A DNA stretch of 64,000 bases from Styela clava (lineage: Eukaryota). Each line of letters opens with the position of its first letter. Positions within the stretch are counted from its first letter, which is position 1. Shown here piece by piece: positions 1,645 through 19,300 of the stretch. A program made the translations under genes and the position numbers. The notes beneath the pieces are model-generated. The model was not told where the DNA came from. It worked only from the letters and a program-made list of their open reading frames with translations, and made no database searches. The stretch covers positions 24,304,001 to 24,368,000 of the forward strand of contig NC_135250.1 of the NCBI RefSeq assembly GCF_964204865.1, read 5' to 3'.

Positions 1645-4600
1645 CTATGTAATATCTATATCAAGTTTATTTATCAATTCAAGCATAATATGGTATGGAT
1701 TGTCTGGTTGTGCAACAGCTTTAAAAATCGAATGGAATGAGCGTCTGTCCAGTTCAGCTGATAATTGATTTGTATAAAAATCTTTCGCTGAAATGTAAAA
1801 TTTTTCAAAATTTGCTTCAGATGGTGGAAGGTGCATTTCACTCAATACGATCGGCAGTAAAGAATTGATCCAGTGATTTGTAGACGCACTGACAAAGATG
1901 CAAGTTAAGCACCATATTGCAGTAGATATCGGAGTTCTTTGAGTAAAATTTCCGAGTGATAACATTACCCATTCTGAAACAACAGCGCTTTCGCCTCGGC
2001 TGTGTAATATTTGAAAAACATGATGAAGTAAGGTAGCAATAAGGTCTGGGAAAGGATGGAGACTCGAAACAAATTCACCGATCACTTTATTCATCATATC
2101 TTGAGTAGAAAAGAAACTGTCCAATAATAGCGGCAGAACATGAATCAAAACTATTGACTCTTGAGGAAATCCACATTTAATTTTATCGAAAAGTAAAGTA
2201 ATTCTTTCCATAGACAAAAGCCTTGATTCTATTGTTTCATCCTCTGTGGAGCTTGTTTCCGAAACTCTCATCAATCGAAAATACATGCATGTGATTGTTA
2301 AATTTAACGAAGTTAAAACACGAATAGATGATTCACTAGCTGTGAACTGATCAACGGCTAACTTAGCAATAGCGTCACAATCACTGCCAGACAAACTATA
2401 ACTAGTTATAAGCGTTTCCAGGCTTCGTAATATCGACACGTAAACATCATTCGGAACATAATTTAATTGTGGTGAACCCAGGATACTTATTGCTCCTTGT
2501 ATAAATGTTTTAGTATGAGCAGGTGTCAAAAAATCTTGCCAATTTTTGATGAGAAAAAATCCGACCGACACGACATTGCGTAAAAACTGTTGTGAATAGA
2601 AAACCACACCAGAATTGATGATCTTGAACTTGTCGCACACAAACTTCGATATCAAGCTGACTAAAGGACGAGCATATTCTTTCAACTCACACTCGAGGAT
2701 GTAAAGAGCACCATACAAAGCAAACGTTGGACAAGAAATCAATGTTGATCCTAATGCAGATTCCATCATTCCTTGTAGTATATCGCAAATCTTTTTATTA
2801 ATTCCAAGCACAGCACCGGATTTACACATTCCCAATACAAGATATTGCAGCATAATGTCATCTTCCGGAGGCTGAACTAGCTGCAGCGAATTCAAAGATG
2901 TGAACATCCATTCAAATTGTTGACGCTCTGTGAAAAAATCGGACACAAGAATAAGAGAATGAATGCAATCGCACAAAAACTGACGCGGAAGTCGCATCAC
3001 AAATGAAGGAGCATTCCCAGACTGCTGATTCTGCGGTGACATTGCACTCGCTGAACGGAACCATTCGGAAAAAAGATCGATTAGAAATTGTACGCAAGAG
3101 TGAGCATCGACAGAATTTTGTTCTACTCGTACACGAGGAGGGGAGGGAGTAATGACGTTCATTTCCGTTGCTACATCACTGGCTTCACTGTTCAAATCAT
3201 CACTGGAAGTTACAGCACCAAAATTCTCATCATCACTCGAGAGTTCACTTGTTTCCTCTTCTAGAGGTGAAATATCATGTAACATCCTAAAGGACTTCAC
3301 CGACCTTTGACCTATGCCGTAATAAAGCGGTTTCATCTCTCGTCTTTCAGGATTTGCATACAACCTTGATTTGAAAACATCATTGGGTACTGAAGAGGAT
3401 TCTGCAACTTTCAAGTAGTTTGTCGCAAGTTGAAAAAAATCGAAGGTTTCGTGAAGTTGATCACCAAAAATGACATCTCTAAGAGCACATTCTATAGTAC
3501 ATTGTATAACGTGAAGATCATGGCCTATTTTGGTTTCTGGCAACACAGGAGACGAAACACGAGGAATATTTTGAAAAGCACCTAATGCAGGTTTCCCTCC
3601 ATGCGGTTTCATACAAGTATTCATGACTAGAGCTGTAAGACCACGAATAGTTAAACAACTAATTTGTATGGCGTTTTCATCAAGTGGCGTGGCATTTTGA
3701 CTGCTATCTCCAATAGGTTGAGAAACTAGGACACCCAACAGACTAGTCCATGTCTCTTCAAATTGCATTCTACTGATCCAACCTAGACTGTTAATGCGAC
3801 CAATATAATCCTTTAACATGTCTTTTTCTTGTAAATATTCGCCAGGTGGTACATGTGATAAGCTTTCAATTTCTTTCTCGTTCATATCGTTTTTGAATAG
3901 GAGTTGAGGAACACGTGCAAGATTATTGAAAAAAGGATGGCAGAGCACAAGTTGAACAGCCCGCTTAAATGGGGCATTCAAAACAGCTGGAATAATATCT
4001 AATCCAGAATTTGATATTTTATCAAACAGTCTGCAAGTTTTAACCACAGCGAATATAGGGGTTGATTTATTGTTTAGACAACGATATGGGGATTTTGAAT
4101 CATCAAAATGCTTATTGGCAACTTGAATATTCCCTGCGTATGCTTCATAGAGCAAGTTTAGACAATTCGCAATAGTCAAAGAATAAGATAGATTGTCATT
4201 TGCATAAAACTGCTTCTGAATTTCAGGCTTCTGTTGTAACACTTGTTGCATAAACTCGAGGCAAACTGATTGTGCATCAATTTCAATTTTCATTCCATGA
4301 AGAATGGAACATATTATGAGTTCATGGCATCCAACAGCCAAACGTAACAAATTTTCGCTCAAAGTGTCAAGTTTTTGAAATGGCTGACCCACAATATTCT
4401 TCCAAATGAGACACCTTGTAAACGCTTTGCAAAGAAGAATCATCAGATCTCTGTTTTCTCTCTTCTCAAATACAGAAAACAGTTTTTGCCAGTAAGCTGA
4501 AAGTGCAGGATAATTTTGATCGTCAATCACAAAAGTTGGCTTGTCAAAATCTTTTGCAAAATCTGTAATGGGGGTAGGTGGTAACTGTCGCATAATGCTT

Positions 4601-7600
4601 TCAAGATATTCTATTAAAACTTCTAAGGTTGCATTTAAAAGTGGAGACGTGATATCGTTAGAATATCTTGCGACAGCATCATCTGGTTTCGTAATTTCCG
4701 ATATTGCAAACCTCAAACATTCTTCAAGATAATTCATATTGAATGATTCGATCCGTATTATCTCTAAAATGTCTTCGTAATCTAGAACGTTAATTGCTTC
4801 GACAACATGGTTGGATTTATGACTTCCCTTAGTAAATGAAGAAACAAGAGCTTTATACCATGATTTGTTTACCTCCTGGTCTTGATGTGAGGCAACTATT
4901 TTCGTTGTTTTATTACTAGCATTATCCTGGCCATTTACAAGTATAGCAAAGAGTCTTTTTCCCAAAGCAGCGAGGCGCCCAAGCCTTGAAATAGACTCAC
5001 ATTTGTCAAATTTTGGTTGAAGTGACTTTAGGTGCAAAATGAGTTGTTCTTTCCGTGGGCTATCATGAGCTTGAGTGAGCATCATCTCAACTCTTCCACA
5101 AGCTAGTCGATCACAAAATTCTGAAATTGCCAAAATCGGTGAAAACACGAACCAGTCTTCTGAGAGCAATAGTGACAAAAGACTATCGGATTGGTTGAGG
5201 TGCATACCCCTGAGACAAAACAGTACTCTCTTTTTAAACGACGCCCTGAATTTGGTTCCCGAGGATAATAACGATTTCAATGATTCTATAAAAAGTCCAC
5301 TTGCTGGTGAGCTGCGATGGACAGCGCTTATAAAATCTTGAATCGGTGGCTCATTTTGAAGGCTTATTATTTCTCGAGTATGGTTAACTATAAGCCAGGA
5401 CATTATTTCAACTTCAGACTGGTTTTGACAGATATAATCTGCCAGCATTATGATAGATCCCTGCTGTACCATTCCAGTGTTCAAAGGTGGTACGTACTCT
5501 GCCGTTTCACGACTCTGTTTACTTTTACCGGTCAATTCTCCCCACATCGTAAGATCTGTATATCCGATGCAAGTTAACAGTTGTGACCATAGAACAGTTA
5601 AAATTGGAAATTTGCTCGATAGAAGATTAAAGTTTACACATAATTCCTCAGTAGAGTAGAAATTTTTGTTCTTATCCTCACGAGACAATAACAGCCTTGT
5701 AGAGTGAGTGAGACGCTTGAAAGATCCCGAGCGATAAATATAAGTCACTGTGAGCAAAAACTCACTGAAAAGTTGAGACAAAAGTTCGTATGATTTTTCT
5801 TGTCCGAATAATATGACAGGATTGAATAATTCATCAACCATTCGTTCAGTTGTGAATCCTATTATTTGCAAAAAAGTTGAAGCAATGACCTCTTCAGGCG
5901 GAAGCACATTATCGCCATTTTCAGCAGCCTGTTTTTCATCATTTGCGTGAATTTCATCAATAGATTTCAAAGATCGCAATAGCTGATTAGAAAACATGGA
6001 TGGATCGATTTGCATTTCTTTTACTCGGAGGAGCAAATATTCCTCTTTGAGATGGCACAAAAGTACTCGGAGTAGAGATACAGTCTTCGCTATCCATCTC
6101 TGATGATAAGCCACAGTTCTTAAATCGGAAGGCAACAGGAAAAATATATTTAAAACCAAGTCAATAGGACGCAATGCGGTTGGTGACAAGGCTTCAAATA
6201 GACTGTGCAAATATGCCATGTCAGAATGTTTTGTAATAACTAGTTTCAAGTGTGATATAAGAGGCAAAAGCACATCTGTAACTTGTCGTGAATATTTTTT
6301 CCACTGTTCCGGATTTTCTTTTCTATAATATTGTAGAATTGTTGTCACCATTGATAGAACTTCTGGATATTCAATAATTCTAAAAAGCATGCTTTGTGTT
6401 ACTTCACGTTGAGTATCAAGATCTGACGTATTATCATGTTTCATACCAGCTCGCAAAACAAAAAGATCATGTACAATTGGTTGCAATGCCGGAATTGTAT
6501 GAGTTACAGTATCACATCCACTTGCCATTATGCCATCACACAACTGAATTATTTTCGGCATTGTCATAACGCTTTTTGAATGATGCTTTTCATATGAAAG
6601 GAGAACTAGAAAAAAGAAAACATGCGGAATCAAAATATCTGAATTACGCACTAATCCACCTTCAATTGACTCAAATTGCTTGATTATAAATCCAATAAAA
6701 ATTTGGTCAGAATCAAGTAGGCAGTAATTGACCCGCAATTGCACGAGTTGCGCAAGAAGGTTTAAAACATGCTTCTGTAAATTCACGGAGCTTGTCATCG
6801 TGTAATTTTTTAGTGATTTAATAACAATCGACTCAAAGAGACGAATATAATTCTGAATCGACATTTTATCTCCTTTTGAACGTTTCGCAGTCAAAGTTAG
6901 CTTTTTTTCGACTTTTTTCTTAATGGATCCAAACCAACCTGAACTAGCTTTTTGTGTGTTTTCTTGCTGAAGATAATGGTGGAAAGATGCATTTGCAATT
7001 GCCATTGTAAGATCGTTTAATGGCCTATGAAAAACTTGATGGTAAAAACTAGCTTTGTAATGCTGTTGATCTTTTCCATGAGTCGGTAATGGTTTGAGTT
7101 TGATTTGGTCATCAAGATCAAGCTGGCTAACCAAATTCGTTCCGAAGAGACTTTTCAGAAGTTGTTGGACAGACTGAACAGTCTGTGTGGGTTCTATGGT
7201 GAAAATGGTTCGCAAATACATCAATAAATCTTCAGTGTATTTTTCAATGTCTTCAAATGTCGTGATCTCAAGAATTTGACAGAATACGTCCAAAACTGCT
7301 TGTAATAATATGCAAAATCTATCATTTTCATCTCCATCCAAAGTGGTTTTAAAACTATCATATGCACCGACTAGGAAATCATGAACCTTCATATGAAGTC
7401 TGGAATTGGCAAAATGAAAAGGAGAGTTCTGCTTGGATGGTTTCTCCTTTTCAGCTTCTTCCGTTAAAACAGGAGATTTTCCAGCTGATCCAGTCTTTTT
7501 ATGCATTTTTTGCTCAGTTGTAGAATTAGCATCTTTTACTTCAATTTTGTCTTTTTTCTTCAAAGTGTTTGGTAGCGAAGGGGTATTTTGTAGAGTTTGA

Positions 7601-10506
7601 AGAACACTTTTATTTGGTAATGATGGCACAGCGTCAGAAATAACATGATGAAATATAGATATAAGTTTCAAGATATGATTGAACAACTTCACAGCCAGAA
7701 TCCCAATTTTATGATCTGACAGTGATGAAAGTGCATTCGGACTTTCAGTTGTAGCCGATCCTTTTATGGGTATCAAAGCTTCTTGCTCACCGAGTTTAGG
7801 ATTAGGGCCGATAGTTTGAAAGCTATGATATGCAATACCGGACATGTAGTTCCCTGCTAATAGCAATACATTTGCATGTGTTGTTATCTCAAGCGGAACC
7901 CAGGCAGAATCTAACATAGCTAAAAGCATTGTTATAATACCTGTATGTTGCTGTTGGGTTTCGGGAACATTGGCTTCAACATTTTGCATTTTGTAGAAAT
8001 TACAATCATAAGAAACAGGGTGCTTTGATACAGAGTACTCATTTGAGAGTGTAAGGAGGGCGTGTATACATCCCTGAGTCAAAGGCTTAGAAATTGATCC
8101 CGCTAACAGAGATGTTAATTTGCCGACAATGACAGAAAGATTATGTGATATTAGTGAATTTTCATCAATTTTTTCATAGCCCCTGTAAATTTTTAACAAG
8201 TTTTTTACCGTTCCTTTTTGTGTCGGGTCAATTGAAGCAGGAGAGCCAGCAGAAACACTGAAACTGTTACAAATCACAGCAGCCTCTGATGTTGTCATAT
8301 TGCACGTTAAAGAATCTATAACAAGACCACCATTTGTCACAATCTTTACGAGCATCGCCGCTGACGTTTTACGAACTCTGACATCTCTATCGCCCAAATA
8401 TTCAAAGCACATATCAACTATTTCTTCATAAATTCGATTCAATATCGAAAATACTTCTAATTTCGGAATTTCTTGCGTTGATTCCGAAGCAAATAAAATC
8501 TGTCTAAAATTTATATTTCCCAGTAATTCCATGAGGTCAACTTTAACAAGCCAGTAAGTCGTATCTTTAAGTTCCAAAATGTTCCCCAACAATTTTACTC
8601 CTAGATTGATGAAATCAGACCTTAGCAAAAATCCTATACAGGTTTTCACAGCTTGAATACTAGCTCGTAAACAAACAAGAGATTCGTCTTTTAATCCATC
8701 AGAAAGGAAATCAACAAGATTTTCAAGTAGTATATCATCTCGATTGTTACCTTTAAAATTTTCATGAAGCCACGAAGTGTAATTATTTTGAGACAATATT
8801 AATGACGAAGCAATGTACTGTGAAACTGCCATCACAGTGCAGCCACGTATCTGTGGATCATAAAAAGATTTGAATGATAATATATCTGATACATGACAGT
8901 TTCTATTGTCGTAAACCGACATAAACATTAATTTAGGACGTAGCTTAAAAATCAACCCAATACATGAAATAGTCAAATTCATTGCACTCACACGAACATC
9001 TTTAGTAGATTCTGATCCTATTTTCAAAATTCTCTCACTGAGTATTCGTACAAACATTTGAATTGGATCTGCTTCACAATAAAGATTCTCGAGTTTGTTG
9101 AAATAAATTTCCTCAGATGAATTACAATCCAAACTGTCAAGATTGGCTATTTCCAATTCTGTATTCTGTTCACTATCCACCTCTTCATGTGTTATGTCTG
9201 ATGATGGCTCATTGATAATAGCATCAGGTTTGGCATCATTAGATTGCACAGTAGATATAGGTAGTTCATTCTGGTGTGTTGACACATCCTCGGATGAAAT
9301 ACCAGCTTCATTTAATTTTTCTGTTACACTTGTCATCGTGTCCTCAATTGTATTATTTTCAGAAACTGGTGTCTCTATAGTTTGAGAAGCATTCGTACCA
9401 CTGCTATCAAAATCTCGGTCCTGGTTCGTGGAACTTTGCTTTTTTATTCCTTTCGATTTCAAAAATGTCACTAATGACTTTGAAAAAACTGTTTCTTTGA
9501 TAGGCTTTGCTTCCAGTAACTCCTTTAGTGACGCAGATGGCAACTTCAACAAAATTTGTAAAGTCTCGAGTGAAGCTGTTACAACATTTGCTTCTTTGAA
9601 GCAAGAAAAATGCACACAAAGCTCGAAAATTTGGACAATTATATCATCGAAAACAACGTCAATTTTTGAATCTTTATCTGAACCAAAACTGCCAGTTCTT
9701 CTTGTAATTTTTGTCCCTACAATTGCAAACAGAGGTATCAAATACCGTAATATGATAAGACTTCCTAATATGAAATTGACATCAAAATTTTTTGTTGAAA
9801 ATGATCCAAGTATACTAGAAACAATGTTGAATAACATAACTTGCTTTTTACTTGAGTTGCTCACAACTTCGTAAATACATATCGAAGATGTCCTTCGAAT
9901 CGCTGCAGAGGGGCTCGATAAATTTTTCATCAGTGCGTCTATAAAACTTTGCAATTCTGCTTCCGCGGCAAACGACCCAATTAAAGGAAATATTTTAGAG
10001 ACAGATGCAGATAAACATTCTTGTATGCTTTCGTCATTCCGTTCGCATATTTTTATAAATGGTGGAAGAAGACTAACAACATATGGCCTGCATTTGCTTG
10101 GACGAATCCTGTGTGCCAAACTGGAGAAACGTACAAGCGCAGTTCTCAAACTACGACTTGATCCGTTTCTTTTAATTTCTTTGTAAAACTCAATCAAAAC
10201 TTTCCCAAAATGCAGTTCTTCTGTTCCTTTTATGATTCTATTAATAGATTCCTCAGCTGCGATTCTAACATCAGCCTCAGCATCCTGACAACACAACAAT
10301 AGCATTTCAATAGTCACACCCAATAATCCAGAATATTCATTATTGCCTTTCACAGGACTGGACAGTATGCTTTCCGCCATTGTTTTACAGCATTCCTGTC
10401 TTTCTGCCTTCGTCGGCATGGGAATCTGCTCCTTTTTATTTGCATCTGTTGTCTCTCCGCCATAATACTGTTTTATATTATTCACAGATTTAACAAGTTT
10501 CTCCAT
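1645..10506 (-). CDS. HTT: Huntingtin (HEAT-repeat scaffold protein), full-length 2,953 aa, single uninterrupted ORF
   Basis: N17-like start MEKLVKSVNNIKQ. Diagnostic huntingtin blocks occur in the right order over the whole length: LLLCCQDAEADVRIAAEESINRIIK, YKEIKRNGSSRSLRTALVRFSSLAHRIRPSKCRPY, YWLVKVDL, LRVNYCLLDSDQIFIGF, PKIIQLCDGIMASG, LGWISRMQFEETWTSLLGVL, EWVMLSLGNFTQRTP, ELDRRSF. ATG at 10506-10504 and TAG ending at 1645. Confidence 0.97.
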   Translation of the reverse strand: MEKLVKSVNNIKQYYGGETTDANKKEQIPMPTKAERQECCKTMAESILSSPVKGNNEYSGLLGVTIEMLLLCCQDAEADVRIAAEESINRIIKGTEELHFGKVLIEFYKEIKRNGSSRSLRTALVRFSSLAHRIRPSKCRPYVVSLLPPFIKICERNDESIQECLSASVSKIFPLIGSFAAEAELQSFIDALMKNLSSPSAAIRRTSSICIYEVVSNSSKKQVMLFNIVSSILGSFSTKNFDVNFILGSLIILRYLIPLFAIVGTKITRRTGSFGSDKDSKIDVVFDDIIVQIFELCVHFSCFKEANVVTASLETLQILLKLPSASLKELLEAKPIKETVFSKSLVTFLKSKGIKKQSSTNQDRDFDSSGTNASQTIETPVSENNTIEDTMTSVTEKLNEAGISSEDVSTHQNELPISTVQSNDAKPDAIINEPSSDITHEEVDSEQNTELEIANLDSLDCNSSEEIYFNKLENLYCEADPIQMFVRILSERILKIGSESTKDVRVSAMNLTISCIGLIFKLRPKLMFMSVYDNRNCHVSDILSFKSFYDPQIRGCTVMAVSQYIASSLILSQNNYTSWLHENFKGNNRDDILLENLVDFLSDGLKDESLVCLRASIQAVKTCIGFLLRSDFINLGVKLLGNILELKDTTYWLVKVDLMELLGNINFRQILFASESTQEIPKLEVFSILNRIYEEIVDMCFEYLGDRDVRVRKTSAAMLVKIVTNGGLVIDSLTCNMTTSEAAVICNSFSVSAGSPASIDPTQKGTVKNLLKIYRGYEKIDENSLISHNLSVIVGKLTSLLAGSISKPLTQGCIHALLTLSNEYSVSKHPVSYDCNFYKMQNVEANVPETQQQHTGIITMLLAMLDSAWVPLEITTHANVLLLAGNYMSGIAYHSFQTIGPNPKLGEQEALIPIKGSATTESPNALSSLSDHKIGILAVKLFNHILKLISIFHHVISDAVPSLPNKSVLQTLQNTPSLPNTLKKKDKIEVKDANSTTEQKMHKKTGSAGKSPVLTEEAEKEKPSKQNSPFHFANSRLHMKVHDFLVGAYDSFKTTLDGDENDRFCILLQAVLDVFCQILEITTFEDIEKYTEDLLMYLRTIFTIEPTQTVQSVQQLLKSLFGTNLVSQLDLDDQIKLKPLPTHGKDQQHYKASFYHQVFHRPLNDLTMAIANASFHHYLQQENTQKASSGWFGSIKKKVEKKLTLTAKRSKGDKMSIQNYIRLFESIVIKSLKNYTMTSSVNLQKHVLNLLAQLVQLRVNYCLLDSDQIFIGFIIKQFESIEGGLVRNSDILIPHVFFFLVLLSYEKHHSKSVMTMPKIIQLCDGIMASGCDTVTHTIPALQPIVHDLFVLRAGMKHDNTSDLDTQREVTQSMLFRIIEYPEVLSMVTTILQYYRKENPEQWKKYSRQVTDVLLPLISHLKLVITKHSDMAYLHSLFEALSPTALRPIDLVLNIFFLLPSDLRTVAYHQRWIAKTVSLLRVLLCHLKEEYLLLRVKEMQIDPSMFSNQLLRSLKSIDEIHANDEKQAAENGDNVLPPEEVIASTFLQIIGFTTERMVDELFNPVILFGQEKSYELLSQLFSEFLLTVTYIYRSGSFKRLTHSTRLLLSREDKNKNFYSTEELCVNFNLLSSKFPILTVLWSQLLTCIGYTDLTMWGELTGKSKQSRETAEYVPPLNTGMVQQGSIIMLADYICQNQSEVEIMSWLIVNHTREIISLQNEPPIQDFISAVHRSSPASGLFIESLKSLLSSGTKFRASFKKRVLFCLRGMHLNQSDSLLSLLLSEDWFVFSPILAISEFCDRLACGRVEMMLTQAHDSPRKEQLILHLKSLQPKFDKCESISRLGRLAALGKRLFAILVNGQDNASNKTTKIVASHQDQEVNKSWYKALVSSFTKGSHKSNHVVEAINVLDYEDILEIIRIESFNMNYLEECLRFAISEITKPDDAVARYSNDITSPLLNATLEVLIEYLESIMRQLPPTPITDFAKDFDKPTFVIDDQNYPALSAYWQKLFSVFEKRENRDLMILLCKAFTRCLIWKNIVGQPFQKLDTLSENLLRLAVGCHELIICSILHGMKIEIDAQSVCLEFMQQVLQQKPEIQKQFYANDNLSYSLTIANCLNLLYEAYAGNIQVANKHFDDSKSPYRCLNNKSTPIFAVVKTCRLFDKISNSGLDIIPAVLNAPFKRAVQLVLCHPFFNNLARVPQLLFKNDMNEKEIESLSHVPPGEYLQEKDMLKDYIGRINSLGWISRMQFEETWTSLLGVLVSQPIGDSSQNATPLDENAIQISCLTIRGLTALVMNTCMKPHGGKPALGAFQNIPRVSSPVLPETKIGHDLHVIQCTIECALRDVIFGDQLHETFDFFQLATNYLKVAESSSVPNDVFKSRLYANPERREMKPLYYGIGQRSVKSFRMLHDISPLEEETSELSSDDENFGAVTSSDDLNSEASDVATEMNVITPSPPRVRVEQNSVDAHSCVQFLIDLFSEWFRSASAMSPQNQQSGNAPSFVMRLPRQFLCDCIHSLILVSDFFTERQQFEWMFTSLNSLQLVQPPEDDIMLQYLVLGMCKSGAVLGINKKICDILQGMMESALGSTLISCPTFALYGALYILECELKEYARPLVSLISKFVCDKFKIINSGVVFYSQQFLRNVVSVGFFLIKNWQDFLTPAHTKTFIQGAISILGSPQLNYVPNDVYVSILRSLETLITSYSLSGSDCDAIAKLAVDQFTASESSIRVLTSLNLTITCMYFRLMRVSETSSTEDETIESRLLSMERITLLFDKIKCGFPQESIVLIHVLPLLLDSFFSTQDMMNKVIGEFVSSLHPFPDLIATLLHHVFQILHSRGESAVVSEWVMLSLGNFTQRTPISTAIWCLTCIFVSASTNHWINSLLPIVLSEMHLPPSEANFEKFYISAKDFYTNQLSAELDRRSFHSIFKAVAQPDNPYHIMLELINKLDIDIT

Positions 10507-10797
10507 TTATATAAACTCTTGTAAGAATTCCAGTCACAAAATTACTAGTACCATCTACTTTATTACTTGGAAAATGATAGTTATAAAGAATTACATTGTG
10601 AAACTGAAGAAAAAAATGATTTTATGATAAAGTGTGAAATGAGTTATCCCAGCTAACTGAGAATAGTACGGTACATAATCAAAAACAATGACAAAAGTGT
10701 TCACATAGCGCGATACCGGTACTGTAATACCTTGAAATTTACAAGTCCCGAATTTTAATTTTTGCCTATATTATTACCAGATATTAGGACTGTAGGA

Positions 10798-10910
10798 CAG
10801 GATTTACATATTTCTCCCCGGAGAGAGGAAAGTCGATAAGACAGCTTAACCATTCCATACCCGACATGGAATGGTAGTCGGACGAGTGGCCGTGGTTCGC
10901 CATATGGTTA
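10798..10910. repeat. Dispersed repeat (probable SINE 3' part), copy A
   Basis: GGATTTACATATTTCTCCCCGGAGAGAGGAAAGTCGATAAGACAGCTTA aligns to the reverse complement of 12481..12556. Confidence 0.6.
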
Positions 10911-11791
10911 GAGAGAGAAAAACTTTATTTCCACAAAACAATGTTAAAAAAGGATAACAGTACATATTTTTATGAAAATACAGTGCAGTGGATATTCAAA
11001 CATTAAATTGTGATGGTCAGTATGCAAGACCTTCACAGGTCACCGAGGCTCCCGACCATTTTATTTACGCTGTGATCAAACTGTCAGCATGGATTATCAC
11101 GCTATGAAATTATAAAATAAAGACAGAAAAATGAAAAACGAGTCGGCTGATAAAGAAAAACTTTCTACCATTCAACACTTTACATTAGATTCATTGTATA
11201 GTTCAGAGGGCATGTGTAAAAACTCTATATATATTATACTACACTTTCATCAAGTACAATACTAATCAAGTCAACCAGAATACAAACAGTCAACTTTAGA
11301 AAAAAATTTGGCAAAATTAAAATAAAAATTGCTTTGGTATGGACAGGTGGGAGCGATACGCCCATGCGGCATGCATAGGAGTCATCAAAGTCAACTCCTA
11401 CCCTATTTGCTGATGTTGCTGATTATGATGTTGGTCTGGCAAATAACACATTAATAAATTCGATATATTGTAATCCCAGAAAAACTTCACATTGGGTGAG
11501 GGCATATTTTGTTGAAAACTCATTTAAACAATAAATTCTGTGGGCTTTAGATGATGTTAAACAATAATATATACAAACATTCGATATATGAAAAGAGCAA
11601 AAATAAAGATATATAGTCTATATATACAAGCTATGCTGTATACGGTATTAGTGGATGGTGAACTCAAAAAATGTGGTAAAAATGTACCGTATCACCAGCA
11701 TGACAAAAGATTAAATGCAGCTTAGTCAGTTCATGGAATTCCTAACATATTTAAGCCAGTAACCAAATATACCGGTACTACCGGTATAGTA

Positions 11792-12437
11792 CAGTGGTTC
11801 CCAACCTTTCTACCCTGGTGGACCGGTTAAATTAAATTAAATGTACTCGAGGACCGGCAAAAATTGAAATGACCGGAACATAAAAGAATATCGCATATTT
11901 GCGTAATACAATGCAACGTCGGGCACTCAATATGCATCTAGACAAAAAGGCACACTTAAAAAAACATCAATTAACTAAAAATTTTGCTGCTGTTTAGTTT
12001 CCAATATGGGATTGCAAACGATGCCTCAAGGAAGTTTCTGCAACACGTAGCCCTGCAGCGGCGTGCAACCAATTTCCTTGCTTCGCTTTAATTAAAGCTA
12101 GTGATGAAAATATTTTCATTTAAAAGTAATAAAAATATAAGTAACTCGTTGAAAATACGGACAACAGTTTGATTGCTCGATTACTTAGCGATGGGTATTT
12201 GTTATCAAGAGATATCCAAAATTGTGACAGTGATTCTTTTTTAAATCTGGACTGTAAAGTAGAATCACAATTTGAATCAAGCTTTTTCATTGGGTTTATC
12301 ATATTAATCCCTGCCATGGACCATCCCTGCATGGGATTCGAACCTGCGAACCGACGCAGAGTAATTAGAGGTGCGGTGGCGAGCGTATTCCTAACGCTTA
12401 GCCCGTTGAGCCACACCGCCGCGGTTGGGAACCAATG
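11792..12437 (-). mobile_element. Deleted hAT/Charlie (Buster-type) DNA transposon with transposase C-terminal remnant
   Basis: TIRs CAGTGGTTCCCAACC (11792) and GGTTGGGAACCAATG (ends 12437); degenerate 8-bp TSD gtatagta/ctatggta. Minus strand reads RFKKESLSQFWISLDNKYPSLSNRAIKLLSVFSTSYL, then after a break FSSLALIKAKQGNWL...LRVAETSL, matching the hAT dimerisation domain. Confidence 0.85.
12304..12420 (-). mobile_element. tRNA-derived SINE head (Pol III A and B boxes)
   Basis: Minus strand GGCGGTG-TGGCTCAACGGG (A box) ... GGTTCGAATCCC (B box). The spacing and lack of an acceptor stem do not fit a real tRNA. Confidence 0.7.
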
Positions 12438-12480
12438 CTATGGTATATGTAAAACAGAACACAAGGGAAATTTCTAATTG

Positions 12481-12556
12481 ATCACTAAGCCATCTTATCC
12501 CTTTCCTTTCCCCAGGGATACGGTAAATAGAGAAATACCGGTATGTAAATCCTATG
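12481..12556. repeat. Dispersed repeat (probable SINE 3' part), copy B, inverted relative to copy A and carrying a CCGGTA insertion at a TA
   Basis: Reverse complement reads GGATTTACA-TA-CCGGTA-TTTCTC...GGAAAGGGATAAGATGGCTTA. Confidence 0.6.
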
Positions 12557-12703
12557 CTTTATTGCCTACACTTAACGCTGTAACGTTAAACCATTACCGG
12601 TACCGGTCCTATTTGTTTATACCAAACGCAGTCTTACCCAATAAATTAGCCTACCCACGGGCCACGGCATGTCTGTACAGCTGTATGTTGCGCCAAACCG
12701 GTA

Positions 12704-14604
12704 CCGTAAAACCGGCTAACTTCGGATGATTTCACTATATTTTGAACAATATCTCCGCCGCATGTTGTTCAACTGAAGCCAAATTTGGAATATAATACAT
12801 TGTGGCTATTCTCGTCTTGATAAAGTCGGTTCCATATCCATCAAAGCCTTTTTTCATTGAAATTATTGTCTTTATTCGTCTATTCTAAAATTATCTAACT
12901 TCGGATGGCCACTTTTCTCTTTGCGTCAACTCGTCGTGAGAGAGAAATGTCTGCGTAAGCAATGACGCGTGACAACGTCGCTGAATAGACCTTACGCCGC
13001 CACGACCTGTCTTGCGTGTTGAATACTGACGTTTGTACGTGACGTTACTCTTGCCGCTTCGCGAAGCTTAACTATTTATTCTTGTGTCCTTTATTATAAC
13101 TCGTATATATTTCACTAACTACTCCTAATTTATTGCAAAATGCTAGTTCGTTCTTTTATGATCGTTTATTTTCAATGCAATAAAAGGATTAGCAAAAAAA
13201 AAAAACGGAAGAATTGAAAGTACCTAACACTGGTGTAGGTTGAAATTGAAATGCAATATGGAACAAGTAAAGAATGAACAAAAATTAGACAATTAAAAAT
13301 AAACGGATGAATCGAATGAAACACTGGCAAAAGTAAAAATTGAAATCAAAAAGCAATATGGAACAAGTAAGGTATGAACAAAAAATCGACAGTTAAAAAT
13401 AAACAGATGAATTGAAGGAAACGCTGGCAAAATCAAGAATTGTAATCATTTCCACATGGGTTAGACGGGTCTTGTGGAACCAATGTGTTTCGCTGCAGCT
13501 TTCGCAACCGACCCATTCATCCTCAATTTCCGTACTTCCATTTGGTTCATTCCATAATCCACAAGCAGAGCAGGTTTCGTCTTGATTATCACTTTTCATA
13601 TTTTCTGATTTTCTCAGAGCTCCCCGTTGATCGGCTCGGCAGAGGTTCCTGCCCGGTGTGACTTTCGATCCTCGCTTTCGTTTCACTTAATAAAGTCAAA
13701 TGACAATAAACGGATAAAAACGGCAAAAAGAAACTTTGCCACTTTTTTTCATTTTGCGCCTCACCTGTATGTGGTCCAACCTCCTGCTGTGTGCATGTAT
13801 GTAGAGTTCTACGCTCACCTGTTAAAGATATTATTATCATCTGCCGATCGTAAACAGACATATCTAATCATTATGATCGTATAGATACATGTTTCAGGCC
13901 TAACGTATTACCAATTGCTACGGTATCTATCGGTGTCGGAGGAAGTATGCAAAAACAAAAATCGACAAATTTCATATGCATTAAGCGTATGCATACCCAT
14001 ATTTTTAAATAAACAACATATGACTGAGACGATAGTGATGTTTTTGTAGGATTTAGTGACTAGGATCATGTATAAGCATAATTTTTAAATTTCACAAAAC
14101 TGGGCGCCGCGATGTCTGGCGTTCAAATGTCGCAGCGAGTAACGCACGAGCTACGCAAAGTGACGTCGGCTACGAAGAGAGAGAACGGGATTTGCGTCGT
14201 TGACGTCACGCTGTACGTAATCATCAAAACGTCAATATTTTAATGTAATTTTTAAATCAAAATAACCGATTTCACTCGAATCTCGTACGACACCTTGTGA
14301 TCACTGTATTTTTTTGTATACATTGTGTACGCTCTCTAGCGCTTGGCGGTGATTTGACGAAGGTAGCGTCTGTAGAAGTCACGATTTGAGCCGCTCGAAA
14401 AAACGGTGTCATTTTTTTGGTAAAATATGATTTTTTGAATGATAAAAAATCAAATCGAGCGATTGGAGGCTACGGCAGATTCAGATATGTAAGGCCTTAC
14501 TATAGAAACCGACAGAAGCGCAATACGACGAAATTTAGTTGAGATATGAATGATTGAAAATTTCATCCGAAGTTACAAAGCATCCGAAGTTAGCCGGTTT
14601 TACG
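12704..14604 (-). mobile_element. Non-autonomous pogo/Tc1-mariner-superfamily element (about 1.9 kb) with PHD-finger remnant
   Basis: TA|CCGTAAAACCGGCTAACTTCGGATG at the left end and CATCCGAAGTTAGCCGGTTTTACG|TA at the right (24-bp perfect inverted match, TA target duplication). Extra subterminal TAACTTCGGATG copies near 12896 and 14564. Internal minus ORF 13393..13686 reads CSACG...DEWVGCESC..HWFH (PHD-like). Confidence 0.85.
13243..13432. repeat. Two-copy degenerate tandem duplication (about 95-bp unit) inside the pogo-like element
   Basis: GCAATATGGAACAAGTAA...TTAAAAATAAAC.GATGAAT.GAA.GAAAC.CTGGCAAAA occurs twice. Confidence 0.8.
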
Positions 14605-14998
14605 TACCGTACCGTAACGGCTTACAACTAATACCGGTATCATTTCAGTCGGCACTACTGCTGTACTGAGTAAACGCTAATCACAGAGCGATTGCGTTGT
14701 GAGTTTTCTTTACTGGTACCGGTACCGGTGAGACTTTATGATTTTCACATTTTTGAACACGTAGTGGACATAACGATCGTTTCAATATTATGTTGTTCTT
14801 GTTGTTTGACACAGAATAACACACCTAGTGGAAATATTAAAAAACCGCTTTTCTCTTCGAATACCGGTACTGGACCAATTGCTTTGAAATTTTAATTGGT
14901 TGAAGATAAAATTTTTTCCCAGAAGGCTATTACTTTTATTCATTTTAAATATTTCTGTTAGCTCTGTGATATTTGTTTTTGTTTGCCATGATGTCGGA

Positions 14999-15078
14999 CG
15001 CCATTTTGTGTCCTACTGTACTGCTTCGCTTGGTGTGAACAATGACATTAAACAACATGATAGGCAACTCTGACGTCA
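14999..15078 (-). promoter_or_regulatory. Candidate HTT promoter (YY1-like CAAAATGGCG and CRE TGACGTCA)
   Basis: CGCCATTTTG at 14999-15008 and TGACGTCA at 15071-15078 in a locally CpG-richer patch about 4.5 kb upstream of the HTT ATG. A minus-strand splice-acceptor-like TTTTTTCTTCAG lies at 10604-10615. Assignment to HTT is inference. Confidence 0.3.
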
Positions 15079-16332
15079 CTCCATAAGACTACAGGCAAAA
15101 CATTGTATTTCATGATACGCTCCAATGCACATATTTCTCGTCGCCTTTCGCGTCCGTTTTCCGCTCGCTTTTGCTACTCGGCGTCTTTTTTACGTGTAGT
15201 ACCTGCCTTTTTGCGCCTGTAACGAAACAAAATAATCTCTATATCTAAGAAGTTTTGCTTACTTGGAAAGCTGGAATAACAGGCAAGCTGTAAAGAGCAA
15301 TTCTGGACATCATAGACGTTTTTTTTTATCAGAAAAGATTACAAACGCGATAGCGGATTATTTTCTTCAATTTCAAATGCAATTACATATTAATATTTGC
15401 ATTCCACTATTATTGCAACATTTGCAAGTTACAGTATTTATTATAAAAAATCGTAAAATTCTATGTACAACCATCAAAATCATATTTGAACAAGCTTTGA
15501 ATAAGGAAAGAAAAATACATACACTGAAAATAACTTAATCTAAATATATGAACCTAAAATTAACAAAAATACTACAGTATAAACTCAATGTTTTAATAAT
15601 TACATTCGTCCTGGCGTTTGGCATCTTTTTTGTGTCACCAGCATACTAAGGCCAGTCTGAAATGATTTTATAGTACCAACTCTAACTAACGAGGCCACAT
15701 GATCATGGGTTTATCTGGATCTTTACGAATGTTTAATTAATTCCAGTAATGCAAAAAAGTTACTTTTATCATTTCATGTATAGATCAGTAAAAAAACAAA
15801 TGACAGATTTTTCCGACAAGACATTTCGCACTACATTGCGTGGCATAGGATTGCTTGAATTATTATTGATTTTGATTTTTAGTAACTAAGTCGTTGTATA
15901 ATTATATTAATATACAAACACATGGAAATTTTCTGTTCGAAGTTGGTCTTCGAATTTGTCATATTGACTGCTGAGCTTATTGTGTTTTTTGATTGTATTG
16001 ATGGAAATATGACAAATTAAACAATGTGCTTCAGAATTTTGTGAAGAGCAGAAATGTTACAACTCCCATTTTCTTCGAAAATGCCACCTTCTTCGTGTAC
16101 TTTGCGTTTAATTTAATTACTCAAGTGTTTTATTCAAGTATTCTTTTGCTAGCTTGATGTGTATTCTTAATTGGGTCAAAATGTGGACAAAAAAAATTAA
16201 TATTCCAAAACTACTTTCAGTAAATTGTTTTCTGTGTGAATAATCAATTTCACTTTAGAAGGTTTGAAAATTCTATTACATTTAGATAAAAAAAAAACTT
16301 CCAAAATACTATTACAATTATTGTTAAGCGTT

Positions 16333-16380
16333 CGAGGGCCGCACTGGAAGTTCTCTGGGGCCGCGAGTTTGAGATCCCTG
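16333..16380. mobile_element. hAT-type MITE terminus
   Basis: GGGCCGC...GGGCCGCGAGTTTGAGATCCCTG followed by GTCTAGAT (Charlie-type TIR CAGGG.TCTCAAAC and NTCTAGAN target). The partner end was not found. Confidence 0.5.
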
Positions 16381-19300
16381 GTCTAGATTGAAGTTGTTCA
16401 AAAAATATATTATAGTATTTTATCATGAATGATGATTATACCCCTTTCGGAATTTCTTCTATAGTACTACCAAAAGTTGATGAACCAAATATAACACAGG
16501 TGCAGTGAGGTACCCGTAATCCTCATTTCCAAAGCTGTTTTAAGTATGTCTGGCGTGTTTTGTGCCTTTTTACAAATAAGACCGCTTATGCAATCTTACG
16601 CTTTGGAATTTTTAGTTATTTTCCTAAAGCCCTGCAGGATGTGGGGGCCATACACAACTCTACCGGAGGGTCAAATGTCTTTGCATGCCTCCATAGGTTG
16701 TTTTTCTATTGCAATTTTCTATTTTCAATTGCATTATATTTCTTGGAATCACACTGTCACTGATATGTCGCCAGACTTCTGATATCTCCACGTCTGCTAT
16801 AGTTGTCCTGTGAATAAATAATAGGAAATTGAGATTAGACGAATAGTTGAAAGTTTTGCTTTATGTCGGCTTAATTTCTTGATTGATATACTTACTATTT
16901 CTGCTATTGCCTCTTGTGCTGCAAGAGTCTCACAATGCTTAGACAGGTTTGTCCACAACTTTCACATCTGAAGAAAAAGAGGAGATTTATTAATTTTCGT
17001 TAAGAATAAATAAAGCAGTCTATATGATTCAGAATGGAAAAGCTAATAAATCCAATATCTCATGTTTTATTTAAAAAATATTTTACTGAATTTTGGAAAA
17101 TAAACCAACTAATAAAAGGGTTTAGTCAGAAAATTACAAGCATTCGTGGCTCCAAATACTTGAGAAATCAGACTATACAATATAGACCGGTATGAGTGAC
17201 ATGTTAGGTGAACTTGTTAACACTTTGATTAAATACGCAAATAAAAGTGAATGCGTAATAGTATGTTACAATGAGCAGCAATCAACAATGAGTATATATC
17301 CTCACTGATTAAAAAAAATCTAACTGGAGGTGCATGAACTATTTGAAACCATAAGGAGTAAGTAAATATGTAATTTCGGCAAATGGGCAACTACGTACCG
17401 TACTGAATTAATAACTTCGTAGTATTTGACAAAGGCTGGCTTTCCCACATGTACTTAACAGTGCGATGCCCGGGTGTGATATACAACAATAGTATTCACC
17501 TTACCTTTTACCGATTTCTTTTTACCCCAACTTTCAAAAATATCATTAAAATCGACAACAACTGTCAAAGCAGGCACGAACACCATTCGTGCTACGCCTT
17601 GAAAGCAGCACACATCCGCTCGTTTTCGTCTCGTCAAGTATGTGCATTGGAGCGTGCTATCGAATACGATCTTCGGACAAAAATGCCGGAGTTGCGCATC
17701 ATGTTGTTTAATGTCATTGGTGTGAATATATTTGTAGACTGTGATTTGACGGTACGGTAAACTGTACTGTACTGCGAAGGTACCGGTACCGAACTGGTCG
17801 CCGGTAACTGGTCGCAAGGTACTGCACATTTGTGAAGAGTCATATTGTTTATTGCAATATTTTTTAGTTTATAAAAATCCAATAAAAAAATAAAAAAGAA
17901 GAGTCAGCTTCAACAATGGCTACCGGTACTGAATAATTGGCGACGAAAAGCGTTTATCCCAGGGCACTAGGAAAAAGAAAGAACGAAAATGTGGCTTTAT
18001 CATACGGATAAGTGAACAACAGCCTTACTTCCGGTTACATGACCCATGTCCGGTATGAGGACAGTTGAAATTTAATTCGAATGAAATTAATTAAAAGTAC
18101 AGGTATGTTATCTACACGGAAAGTTCGGAAAGCACTGCTCTAGCTGGAGTAACAAATAGACTTCATATTTGCAAGTGGAATTTCGACAGAAGAATAGGGC
18201 ACAGGTAGTGTTTCAATGGGCACTGGTCTCTGACCAAGACGGAATCTTAATTGCAAATACCAAATTACATATTATGTAATATTTTGATTGATAAGTTTTG
18301 TCCTAAAAACACCACGCACTAAATGTTAATTCTAAAAATGTTTTTGTATTTTACGTAATGCTAATAGATGTTACCCCGGTTTTTGTCCCCAGAATATTTC
18401 CTACATATGTATATACTTTACTAGTTTACTTATGCGAAATTTTTATGCCTATCATCAAATAATTTTTATTTTCAATACTAAGAATTTTCAACCACCACCA
18501 TTAAAATGTACCTGCAGCTATATGTCATCTTTTTCTGGCATTTTAACAGCAAACTAAAATTGACTAAGATACAAAATGACCACCGCTAGTTAGATTTACA
18601 CTTACAATTTGAGTCACAAAAATAGAACTGAAAAATATTTAACAATATCACTTATGAACACACATATCCATCTGTTCTATAACAACCTTATTTATTACCA
18701 TGCATCATTCTGGTTTGGGCGACTTTATCTGATCTCGAACCACATTGCCAATAAGAAAAAGTTAACATTCTTAAATAGCGTATGGATCATAATAAGTTCA
18801 AAAACTATACAGATAAGAAATTATTTAGCAACATCTTTCCTAACACACATATATAAAAATTCTCGGAAGAGATGAGGTTCGAAATTTTCGAAAACATGTT
18901 TTTTTTATTCAACTGTCTGAAATATATATCCTTCTTTTGGAAAACCATAACGAACTTACAGCTCTAAAAAAACAGTTTTATAACAGTTACGGTTTATAAA
19001 GATGGTGTAGGCGAGAATTTAAACATTTCGTTACCTATATTTGGAATAATGTGCTGTAACAGCCTCTTGTTGGCTTGGCCTTACCTGGCGTGACCTTCTA
19101 TGTTTGTTGACCTACAACTTGAAACAGAAGGCCTGTAAAGTACAACAACATTGAGAATTGAAAAGTGAAGGTTGAATTAGGATAATTCTCGTCGTATATA
19201 TTATAACGTTAGATTATTCTAACAATAGAAGATGAATGAACAGGCCCGAAGAAGTTTGCTTCATATCTGTATTCTCCATGCAGTCTAGTTATACGTTGTA

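Follow-up and report, generated by a model that had tools for sequence, protein, structure and literature searches.

The stretch of Styela clava DNA analysed here (64,000 nucleotides, referred to below as the window) contains, directly upstream of the huntingtin gene (HTT), a cluster of short words in which two TA dinucleotides enclose CCGG (TA-CCGG-TA, TACCGGTA), CCG or CGG. Three of these words were tested and are 5-6-base insertions at an ancestral TA; the words as a whole are, with high probability, excision scars of CCG-ended pogo transposons that likely hit the promoter region repeatedly. The HTT-upstream cluster lies at the strong extreme of a pattern seen throughout the genome and is not peculiar to HTT.

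Word cluster upstream of HTT

The identity of the gene, as proposed in the initial annotation, is borne out by a single uninterrupted 2953-aa open reading frame on the minus strand (1645..10506) with four huntingtin Pfam domains (Htt_N-HEAT_1, Htt_N-HEAT, Htt_bridge and Htt_C-HEAT); a literature search on intron loss gave no match. The near edge of the cluster is the HTT ATG, with the first words 161 and 208 bases upstream of it. All ten TACCGGTA that had been reported in the cluster start exactly where the initial annotation placed them (10714, 11770, 11779, 12536, 12595, 14632, 14717, 14862, 17781 and 17921), as do the two beyond it (26931 and 54732). This density (10 per 7.3 kb) compares with the 0.047-0.242 predicted by Markov models of orders 1-4 fitted to the window (Poisson p at most 1.5e-13), in agreement with the earlier estimate of well under one, and with 0.59 expected from the genome-wide rate (30,656 TACCGGTA in 376.8 Mb; p 8e-10), these p-values being generous because the region was picked after the fact. 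The words thus exceed a Markov background. In a genome sample of 1.2 Mb, made up of six 200-kb blocks, none of 162 non-overlapping 7.3-kb bins held at least 10 TACCGGTA (6 in the fullest), and no sliding window held more than 7. Within the region, CCGG alone stands out among the 256 TA-4-TA words, and CCG/CGG rank first among the 64 TA-3-TA words. All ten TACCGGTA fall in the ~1.9 kb that lies outside four inserted elements; the 7.3-kb span consists mostly of later insertions. Note that Tandem Repeats Finder detected no array of such words, and a tandem-repeat origin of the cluster was rejected.

The region also holds ten 7-mers (five TACCGTA and five TACGGTA), where 0.32-0.45 of each would be expected under Markov models of orders 2-4. 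The initial annotation had noticed eight of these, with one position to be corrected from 11686 to 11685, and had read its words as probable excision footprints. Four of the ten are not local scars: the 7-mer at 12702 consists of the target TA followed by the opening bases of a resident element (element A), and those at 13919, 17396 and 17753 belong to repeats of which most other copies have the word too.

Ancestral state of the words

It had been suggested that the words would turn out to be 5-6-bp indels at ancestral TA sites. Wherever an ancestral state is visible, the words are indeed 5-6-bp insertions at a single TA, or else polymorphic indels, and the word is the derived state at all three informative sites of the window (14862, 11685 and 11641) when compared to a single ancestral TA. 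The cleanest case is the TA-CCGG-TA scar at 14862..14869, which lies in a high-copy repeat of ~350 bp and corresponds to a 6-base gap in 29 of 29 paralogues, nearly all of them with a plain TA at the gap. The TA-CGG-TA scar at 11641..11647 lies in an old low-copy repeat and is missing from all 12 aligned paralogues (29 were fetched). The TA-CCG-TA scar at 11685..11691 belongs to the same repeat; its 12 aligned paralogues are all without CCGTA (ten have a plain TA, one has another small insertion and one a deletion). Moreover, a plain-TA copy was found for 7 of the 72 CCG words with a paralogue in the 1.2-Mb sample, against 2 such cases among 199 control TA-n-TA words (p=0.002).

Haplotypes were compared using runs X1-X4 (two samples from one study), a fifth run (X5, Hi-C) having been dropped for its almost complete lack of cover in unique parts. 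The X1, X2 and X4 contigs omit 5 bases at 11684. In the CCGG chain at 14717..14729 one 6-bp unit is polymorphic, 6 bases being omitted at 14715 in X1, X2 and X3 and in about half of the X4 depth. The stretch 12519..12607 holds words at 12519 (CGG) and 12536 (CCGG) and a CCGG chain at 12595, in which X1 and X2 have 7 additional bases (GGTACCC) at 12600; taken literally at that place, this insertion is not a standard scar. Polymorphisms of the window thus include -6 at 14715 and +7 at 12600, as well as an element-free allele at element A.

For the remaining words a scar is the probable reading. The promoter-proximal TA-CGG-TA at 10667 and the TA-CCGG-TA chained to CTG-TA at 10714 (together 10667..10726) have no paralogue among the loci compared, and the X1, X2 and X4 contigs cross both ungapped. 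Two TA-CCGG-TA that lie 9 bases apart and abut a hAT-like insertion (11770..11786) have no informative paralogue among those loci, and the two at the far edge of the cluster (17781 and 17921; 17781..17928) have no paralogue there, the spanning contigs carrying 1, 7 and 1 gap letters at places not given. In the few haplotypes of the two samples from one study, no indel was seen at 10667, 10714, 12519, 12536 or 14632. The ancestral state is therefore known for only one of the ten TACCGGTA (14862), and one more is polymorphic without polarity.

Element A and reuse of TA sites

The initial annotation described a resident element that begins TA|CCG, and this was confirmed. Element A (12704..14604) is a non-autonomous, internally deleted pogo element of 1901 bp, recognized by its inverted repeat, a terminal inverted repeat (TIR) beginning CCGTAAAACCGG and a TA duplication; its right end is without the final G. 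About 30 near-identical copies were found, and TA is present at 62 of 64 family-A ends. Element A retains a transposase C-terminus on the minus strand (13393-13686), in which 26 of 28 residues match the end of a DDE_1-type transposase ORF. Between TIRs of the family-A type at another locus (L143) there are Pfam matches to DDE_1 (E=1.6e-19) and HTH_psq (E=3.3e-6), with 35 residues between the second and third Asp by hand count (DD35D). The features of pogo elements are thus all found (DDE_1 with DD35D, a helix-turn-helix domain, a TA duplication and a short TIR), the window copy supplying the C-terminus only, and the resident 1.9-kb element derives from a pogo DD35D transposase. Among the family-A copies no complete transposase ORF was identified. 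A sister family and other CCG-ended TA elements occur in the genome. The elements end in CCG...CGG, and the cores of the words (CC+GG, CCG and CGG) are the elements' first and last 2-3 bases; in other words, a cognate TA-duplicating family is present in the same genome as words in which a duplicated TA surrounds a few bases that match its termini.

Element A is itself polymorphic for presence, a joint from 12700 to 14609 being found in all four runs. The element-free allele appears to hold one CCG unit fewer (the letters of the joint are unconfirmed), and it is a sister or ancestral state, because it is shorter than an excision product of the window allele would be. No site was observed in both states, once filled by a particular element and once marked by its scar.

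Shared TA sites carry stacks of elements and scars. A TA-CCG-TA-CCG-TA chain immediately adjoins the right end of element A and is followed by the TA-CCGG-TA at 14632 (14605..14639), and 17 of the 64 family-A ends touch a word directly, compared to 0.29% of TA sites, an excess of about 90-fold over a random TA. Genome-wide, there are 1,090 doubles, 68 triples and 3,129 mixed chains, against 5, 0 and 10 for controls. Tight sub-clusters also occur: 29 7-mers lie 13-100 bp from an 8-mer where 2.5 would be expected. After simple repeats TACCGGTA is the most over-represented 8-mer of the genome sample, and it outnumbers the resident-family copies found by about a thousand to one. The insertions at TA, the indels and the word-touching element ends largely support the original proposal that the region was repeatedly hit and vacated by CCG-ended elements, and neither of the two outcomes that the initial annotation had named as refuting it was observed.

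Two other insertions were considered as word sources. One (11792..12437; sequence reading and depth profile) is a non-autonomous hAT-like element with ends CAGTGGTTCCCAAC that holds a high-copy repeat; its 8-bp flanks agree at 6 of 8 positions, and from its terminal sequence and duplication length we take it to belong to the hAT superfamily. The other, element B (15040..17719; sequence and copies), is a high-copy non-autonomous DNA transposon with the TIR CAATGAC and a 7-bp duplication (GTGTGAA); it sits within the repeat that bears the 14862 scar and carries the word at 17396 by inheritance. Both were rejected, their termini being wrong and their duplications 7-8 bp long. A second word family (TAGGCCTA/TAGGCTA/TAGCCTA) occupies the same spots as the CCG words. 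TA-flanked GGCTTGCACG elements were rejected as its source, and no source of these GGC words was found, because two of the three GGCTTGCACG elements carry 8-bp duplications.

Gene starts, alternative explanations and precedents

In the 2 kb upstream of 19 gene starts, words are enriched 2.6-fold (27 sites against 10.3 expected, p=0.002), and p is 0.036 with the 8-mers alone. These starts are ORF starts picked by hand, and a single 200-kb block supplies 12 of them. There was no enrichment downstream of the 19 starts (9 against 9.0 expected), nor of control words, CpG or TA upstream of them. Nine of these starts have at least one site, compared to 6.3 expected (p=0.13). From this 5' bias in 19 genes only, we infer that the sites hit were in germline-open chromatin. 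With ~30,000 copies of TACCGGTA genome-wide and upstream enrichment in a small sample, such words likely mark repeatedly hit DNA.

CCG-ended elements, as observed here, duplicate TA on insertion. By established Tc1/mariner chemistry, the transposase would make staggered cuts a few bases in from either end of the element; once the broken ends are joined, those terminal bases would remain between two TAs. Reuse would have two layers. The regional one (about 10-fold within 100 bp, with the 5' bias) most likely reflects accessible germline chromatin. In the sequence layer, each scar would add two TAs in the G-rich GG-TA-CC context that the family appears to favour, and therefore scars would draw further insertions and grow into chains. 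Tentatively, scars may constitute a self-seeding genome-scale mutational layer in which promoters gain chains of scars and some 20,000 independent scars permanently record germline accessibility, in a form that the assembly by itself would reveal. Some TA-xy-TA motifs elsewhere may have begun in this way: since the product resembles a palindromic promoter motif, abundant ones may be scars later adopted by transcription factors.

An alternative that we consider unlikely, if worth weighing, is that the words are scars but that their clustering stems from retention or local hopping rather than from open chromatin. Elements near promoters would be harmful, so that excised alleles would be favoured, or else element A and its predecessors would have hopped nearby. 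The 5' bias and the tight sub-clusters (29 against 2.5) suit either version equally well, and element A does lie in mid-cluster. However, strong purging is at odds with the persistence of large elements of several kinds in this region, and there are dense clusters beside which no CCG-ended element was found (among them 12 sites within 420 bp of C13). Co-clustering of GGC-type words (14 against 3.0 within 100 bp) is a weak counterargument, because a control word co-clusters as well (10 against 2.2).

It is very improbable that the words and chains arose by replication slippage or by amplification within repeats. The indel at 14715 does span a single unit of a 6-bp tandem, three window 7-mers are inherited, and the arrangement of some mixed chains as inverted pairs, 110-140 bp from each other, points to a repeat family. 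In the genome sample the word is common to the paralogue at 21 of the 27 8-mer sites that have one (21 of 106 sites overall), so that roughly one word in five is a copy that a repeat has carried along. Yet for 79 of the 106 sites the DNA compared contains no paralogue, there was no CCGG or CCG to copy at the ancestral 14862, 11685 and 11641, and mixed chains exceed pure doubles (3,129 to 1,090; 15 of 21 adjacent word pairs in the sample are mixed).

Least credible of all is an origin as selected transcription-factor sites, such as those of Grainyhead/CP2 (consensus AACCGGTT): the words are palindromes, occur in clusters and are over-represented upstream of gene starts, TACCGGTA retains the CxxG core of a site in which outer A/T changes are better tolerated (PMC13105062), and an analogous Phytophthora word, TACATGTA, is bound by PsMyb37 (PMC11134190), but the words arise as whole 5-6-bp insertions and stack on element ends, the 7-mers disrupt the CxxG spacing, and TACCGGTA (112 against 7.9 expected) lacks the graded variants that a selected site would give (AACCGGTT 10 against 12.9, AACCGGTA 11 against 10.1 and TACCGGTT 9 against 10.1 expected). 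This origin is refuted; later co-option is a separate matter.

Excision footprints and reuse of sites are already known, and the original paper on the Tc1 footprint is reportedly that of Eide and Anderson in 1988. In Tc1/mariner elements a duplicated TA likewise surrounds 2+2 or 3 terminal bases: TA-CC-GG-TA parallels the Caenorhabditis elegans Tc1 footprint, given as taCATGta in PMC3520976, and TA-CCG/CGG-TA parallels that of Sleeping Beauty, described as cag/ctg between TA duplications (PMC5224488). Unlike those, the scars here have the CCG termini of a pogo family, occur as both types in bulk in one genome, and are natural, germline and numbered in the tens of thousands rather than rare. 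For a Stowaway MITE in intron 4 of Triticeae beta-amylase, Mason-Gamer (2007, PMC1925063) describes natural footprints with 1-4 terminal bases, several types per site and a complete element that had inserted next to an earlier footprint, at the same TA; that is one plant locus across species, whereas reuse is counted here family-wide (17/64 ends) and genome-wide (thousands of chains). The DD35D families of the pogo superfamily described by Gao et al. (2020, PMC7386202), Fot/Fot-like and Passer, share with the elements here the TA duplication, a short TIR, DDE_1 with DD35D, a helix-turn-helix and a length within 1.2-5.2 kb; DD35D being common to Fot-like and Passer, the assignment here is to pogo, from domains, spacing, TIR and TA. 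The main text of that paper does not use the word 'footprint'. The Phytophthora word (motif-1/AM-20) is also a palindromic, footprint-shaped TA-xy-TA that is abundant upstream of genes, and the accounts of it set a footprint origin aside for its abundance and conservation and report binding by a Myb protein (PMC3520976, PMC11134190); unlike that Myb-bound word, the analogous word here is not known to be bound by a protein, and arises by insertion.

Excision footprints tend to be seen as uncommon oddities of single loci, and one published study cites high abundance as grounds for denying a promoter word such an origin (PMC3520976), whereas the footprint-shaped word here is both abundant and biased towards gene starts. 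In the largely open-access literature searched, we found no report of genome-scale footprint words. Such words are a warning for motif finders, and scar counts tally earlier transpositions of which the surviving copies give no sign; two questions become testable from sequence, namely which germline sites DNA transposons insert into and whether reinsertion is drawn to scars.

Finally, a CpG-specific decay of the words was rejected: TACTGGTA/TACCAGTA are raised (58 against 36), but TATCGGTA/TACCGATA are raised equally (57 against 30), which therefore points to general transition decay or to repeats. An effect of CpG islands was also rejected, word density being unrelated to CpG observed/expected (rho 0.004) and CpG not being enriched upstream of the 19 starts. 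The seeding of new CpGs that the initial annotation envisaged is real but small, amounting to 20 of the region's 273 CpGs and, across the genome sample, to 0.9%.

A word cluster upstream of HTT

The initial annotation had read a dense set of words upstream of HTT (10660-17930), namely the 8-mer TACCGGTA (TA-CCGG-TA) and the 7-mers TACCGTA and TACGGTA, as footprints of repeated excision by CCG-ended elements. Judged by word counts, paralogues, haplotypes and element ends, the cluster is genuine and its interpretation was right. We are highly confident that the words are of scar origin, and consider it probable that the overall explanation holds, namely that they are scars of CCG-ended pogo elements that hit this region repeatedly.

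All ten copies of TACCGGTA in the region, and two outside it, were confirmed in the window sequence; Markov models of order 1-4 trained on the window predict 0.05-0.24 copies in the region. There, TACCGGTA is the sole outlier among 256 TA-4-TA words, and TACCGTA and TACGGTA, at 5 copies each, top the 64 TA-3-TA words. Because the single HTT ORF (2953 aa, minus strand) starts at 10506, the near edge of the cluster lies 161 bases upstream of the ATG. Of the region's 273 CpGs, 20 are supplied by the words; in a sample of 1.2 Mb (six 200-kb blocks), their share is 0.9%.

The region is made up of insertions nested within one another: a short high-copy repeat (~10793-10910), an old low-copy repeat (~11480-11772), a hAT-like element (11792-12437), element A (a resident non-autonomous pogo element, 12704-14604), and a high-copy repeat of roughly 350 bp interrupted by element B, another DNA transposon (15040-17719; TIR CAATGAC, 7-bp duplication) that we take, from its TSD length, to be possibly of the P superfamily. 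Subtracting four insertions leaves ~1.9 kb, which holds all ten 8-mers. Four 7-mers were rejected as local scars: that at 12702 consists of the target TA and the first bases of element A, and those at 13919, 17396 and 17753 are carried by most other copies of their respective host repeats. (Element B gave more than 2,400 first-look candidates with a query that also spanned part of the host repeat; its copies are near-identical, some arranged head-to-head or tail-to-head.)

Scar-shaped words of a CAG-ended type, TA-CAGCTG-TA (12676-12685) and TA-CTG-TA (10720-10726), also occur in the cluster; TACAGTA/TACTGTA are enriched just 1.3-1.4-fold in the sample. Outside 10660-17930, the window is rich in TGACGTCA, presumably CRE-like (16 copies versus 1.25 expected).

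Abundance and position relative to genes

In the sample, TACCGGTA occurs 112 times against 7.9 expected, the highest 8-mer behind runs of TA and C. Genome-wide there are 30,656 copies, compared with 4,861 of a reversed control, and by our own rough estimate, with background and repeat-borne copies subtracted, ~20,000 independent scars. For Phytophthora TACATGTA, which is bound by a Myb protein (available text of PMC11134190), abundance is among the published reasons against a footprint origin (PMC3520976, in the part available); in Styela clava, abundance alone does not exclude such an origin. The mechanism is ordinary; what is notable is scale, site reuse and 5' bias. The footprint forms are textbook (accessible portions of PMC3520976 and PMC5224488), and single natural footprints have also been read from pangenomes (bioRxiv 10.64898/2026.10.12.758581, as far as available). 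In a literature search limited largely to non-subscription papers, no account was found of footprints forming a leading genomic word with a bias to promoters.

The 5' bias was assessed at 19 ORF starts judged to belong to host genes; they were chosen among 139 long ORFs, of which a Pfam scan covered 92. Within 2 kb upstream there are 27 sites, against an expectation of 10.3 from block-matched placement (p=0.002). At least two upstream sites are present at 7 of the 19 genes, compared with 2.1 expected (p=0.003). Downstream there is no excess (9 versus 9.0), and control words, CpG and TA are flat at these starts. In this small, hand-picked set, the upstream excess supports the proposed link to promoters; it does not itself demonstrate a chromatin state. 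It is compatible with either targeting or retention, between which it cannot separate, and retention or local hopping is a live alternative for the location of the cluster. Open chromatin is, by a little, our favored regional cause.

The HTT ORF is uninterrupted (1645-10506); huntingtin usually has dozens of exons. Many housekeeping genes likewise look intronless or nearly so (L153:2710-4308, L151:6951-7469, and blocks on contigs C4, C8 and C13), among them leucine aminopeptidase, GRIM-19, an ELP2-like WD40 protein, NPRL3, CLPB, SelO, LSG1-like and RBM19-like. Some are operon-like, head-to-tail, such as Sedlin then CLPB on C4. A literature search on intron loss found no paper.

A second scar-like family is present in the sample (TAGGCCTA, 28 versus 5.9; TAGGCTA/TAGCCTA, 160 versus 67) and at 12647 in the window. 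An empty copy was found for 7 of its 40 words with a paralogue, and no GGC-ended source element was found.

Empty sites in paralogues and haplotypes

At 14862, all 29 fetched host-repeat copies have a 6-base gap, nearly all being plain TA. CCGTA at 11685 is absent from all 12 copies that span the site (29 fetched), none of which carries the 11641 word either. Slippage, which with repeat amplification explains a minority of the words, is ruled out at these three sites because the empty sites contain no CCG to duplicate. Across the sample, a paralogue was available for 27 of 106 8-mer and 45 of 170 7-mer sites; it was plain TA for 3 and 4 of these, respectively, versus 2 of 199 control words (p=0.002), and the remaining words are mostly present in the paralogue too. 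Origin as Grainyhead-type sites is unlikely, as the consensus AACCGGTT (PMC13105062, available part) and neighboring words are not enriched.

Contigs from four sequencing runs (two samples, one study) were compared with 12426-14800. X1, X2 and X3 lack one 6-base unit of the 14717 chain, as does X4 over half its depth. At the 12595 chain, X1 and X2 carry 7 additional bases (GGTACCC), at literal placement no standard scar. An allele without element A is present in all four runs; provided that its joint holds no letters, it would contain a single TA-CCG-TA in place of the window's element and two such units, and the window lineage would have received at least two further hits at that TA. Other indels here lack CCG words: 8 bases at 12573 and at 14656 (14656-14663, a polymorphic TACTGCTG inside the cluster) and 9 at 14687. 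No indels were listed at 12519, 12536 or 14632 among the four runs' contigs, nor gaps at 10667 or 10714 in spanning contigs.

Pogo elements and site reuse

Element A has ~30 near-identical copies, 1.1-1.9 kb where ends could be paired (one is 8.3 kb with an insert), and TA precedes CCGT at 62 of 64 ends of its family. The match lists reach relatives of 83% identity, so near-identical copies were probably all captured. The window copy retains the C-terminal end of a transposase. In a relative of 3.4 kb that shares these termini, a frame of 447 aa contains HTH_psq and DDE_1 domains, the latter showing DD35D spacing. This fits the pogo superfamily as described in the available text of PMC7386202. 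Individual scars cannot be assigned to one family, since there are sister families as well as other TA elements ending in CCG, and pogo-type frames are much commoner genome-wide (95 matches).

Words directly adjoin 17 of 64 family ends versus 0.29% of TA sites, a comparison in which queries carrying a few flanking bases possibly favored word-adjacent copies. Reinsertion next to an old footprint is known for Stowaway, at one locus (PMC1925063, in the part available). Genome-wide there are 1,090 doubles (control, 5), 68 triples (control, 0) and 3,129 mixed chains (control, 10), the last overstating independent events because some such chains form a repeat family. A further unit directly follows TACCGGTA in 3.6% of cases, compared with 0.1% after any TA. 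Once stripped of scars, element ends have G at -1 at 0.48 (background, 0.18) and at -2 at 0.35 (0.17), and all four 3-base-unit pairs in the sample are CGG-then-CCG, creating GG-TA-CC. At 13-100 bp from an 8-mer, 7-mers number 29 versus 2.5 expected, a regional effect on top of which there is probably a sequence preference for insertion that the scars themselves satisfy.

A cluster on contig C13 (~4,074,700-4,075,160), with twelve CCG sites in 420 bp, is denser than that at HTT and is interspersed with GGC- and CAG-type words. Elements of family A and its sisters use each other's target duplications as insertion sites; they are found joined end to end with one TA in common (L143:525-8414; L142; L017). 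On contig C6 (21.82-21.84 Mb), a pogo transposase region sharing 37-41% identity with the family-A enzyme is present in tandem, in six or more copies spaced 2,937 bases apart, and equal-scoring dispersed copies lie on six other contigs.
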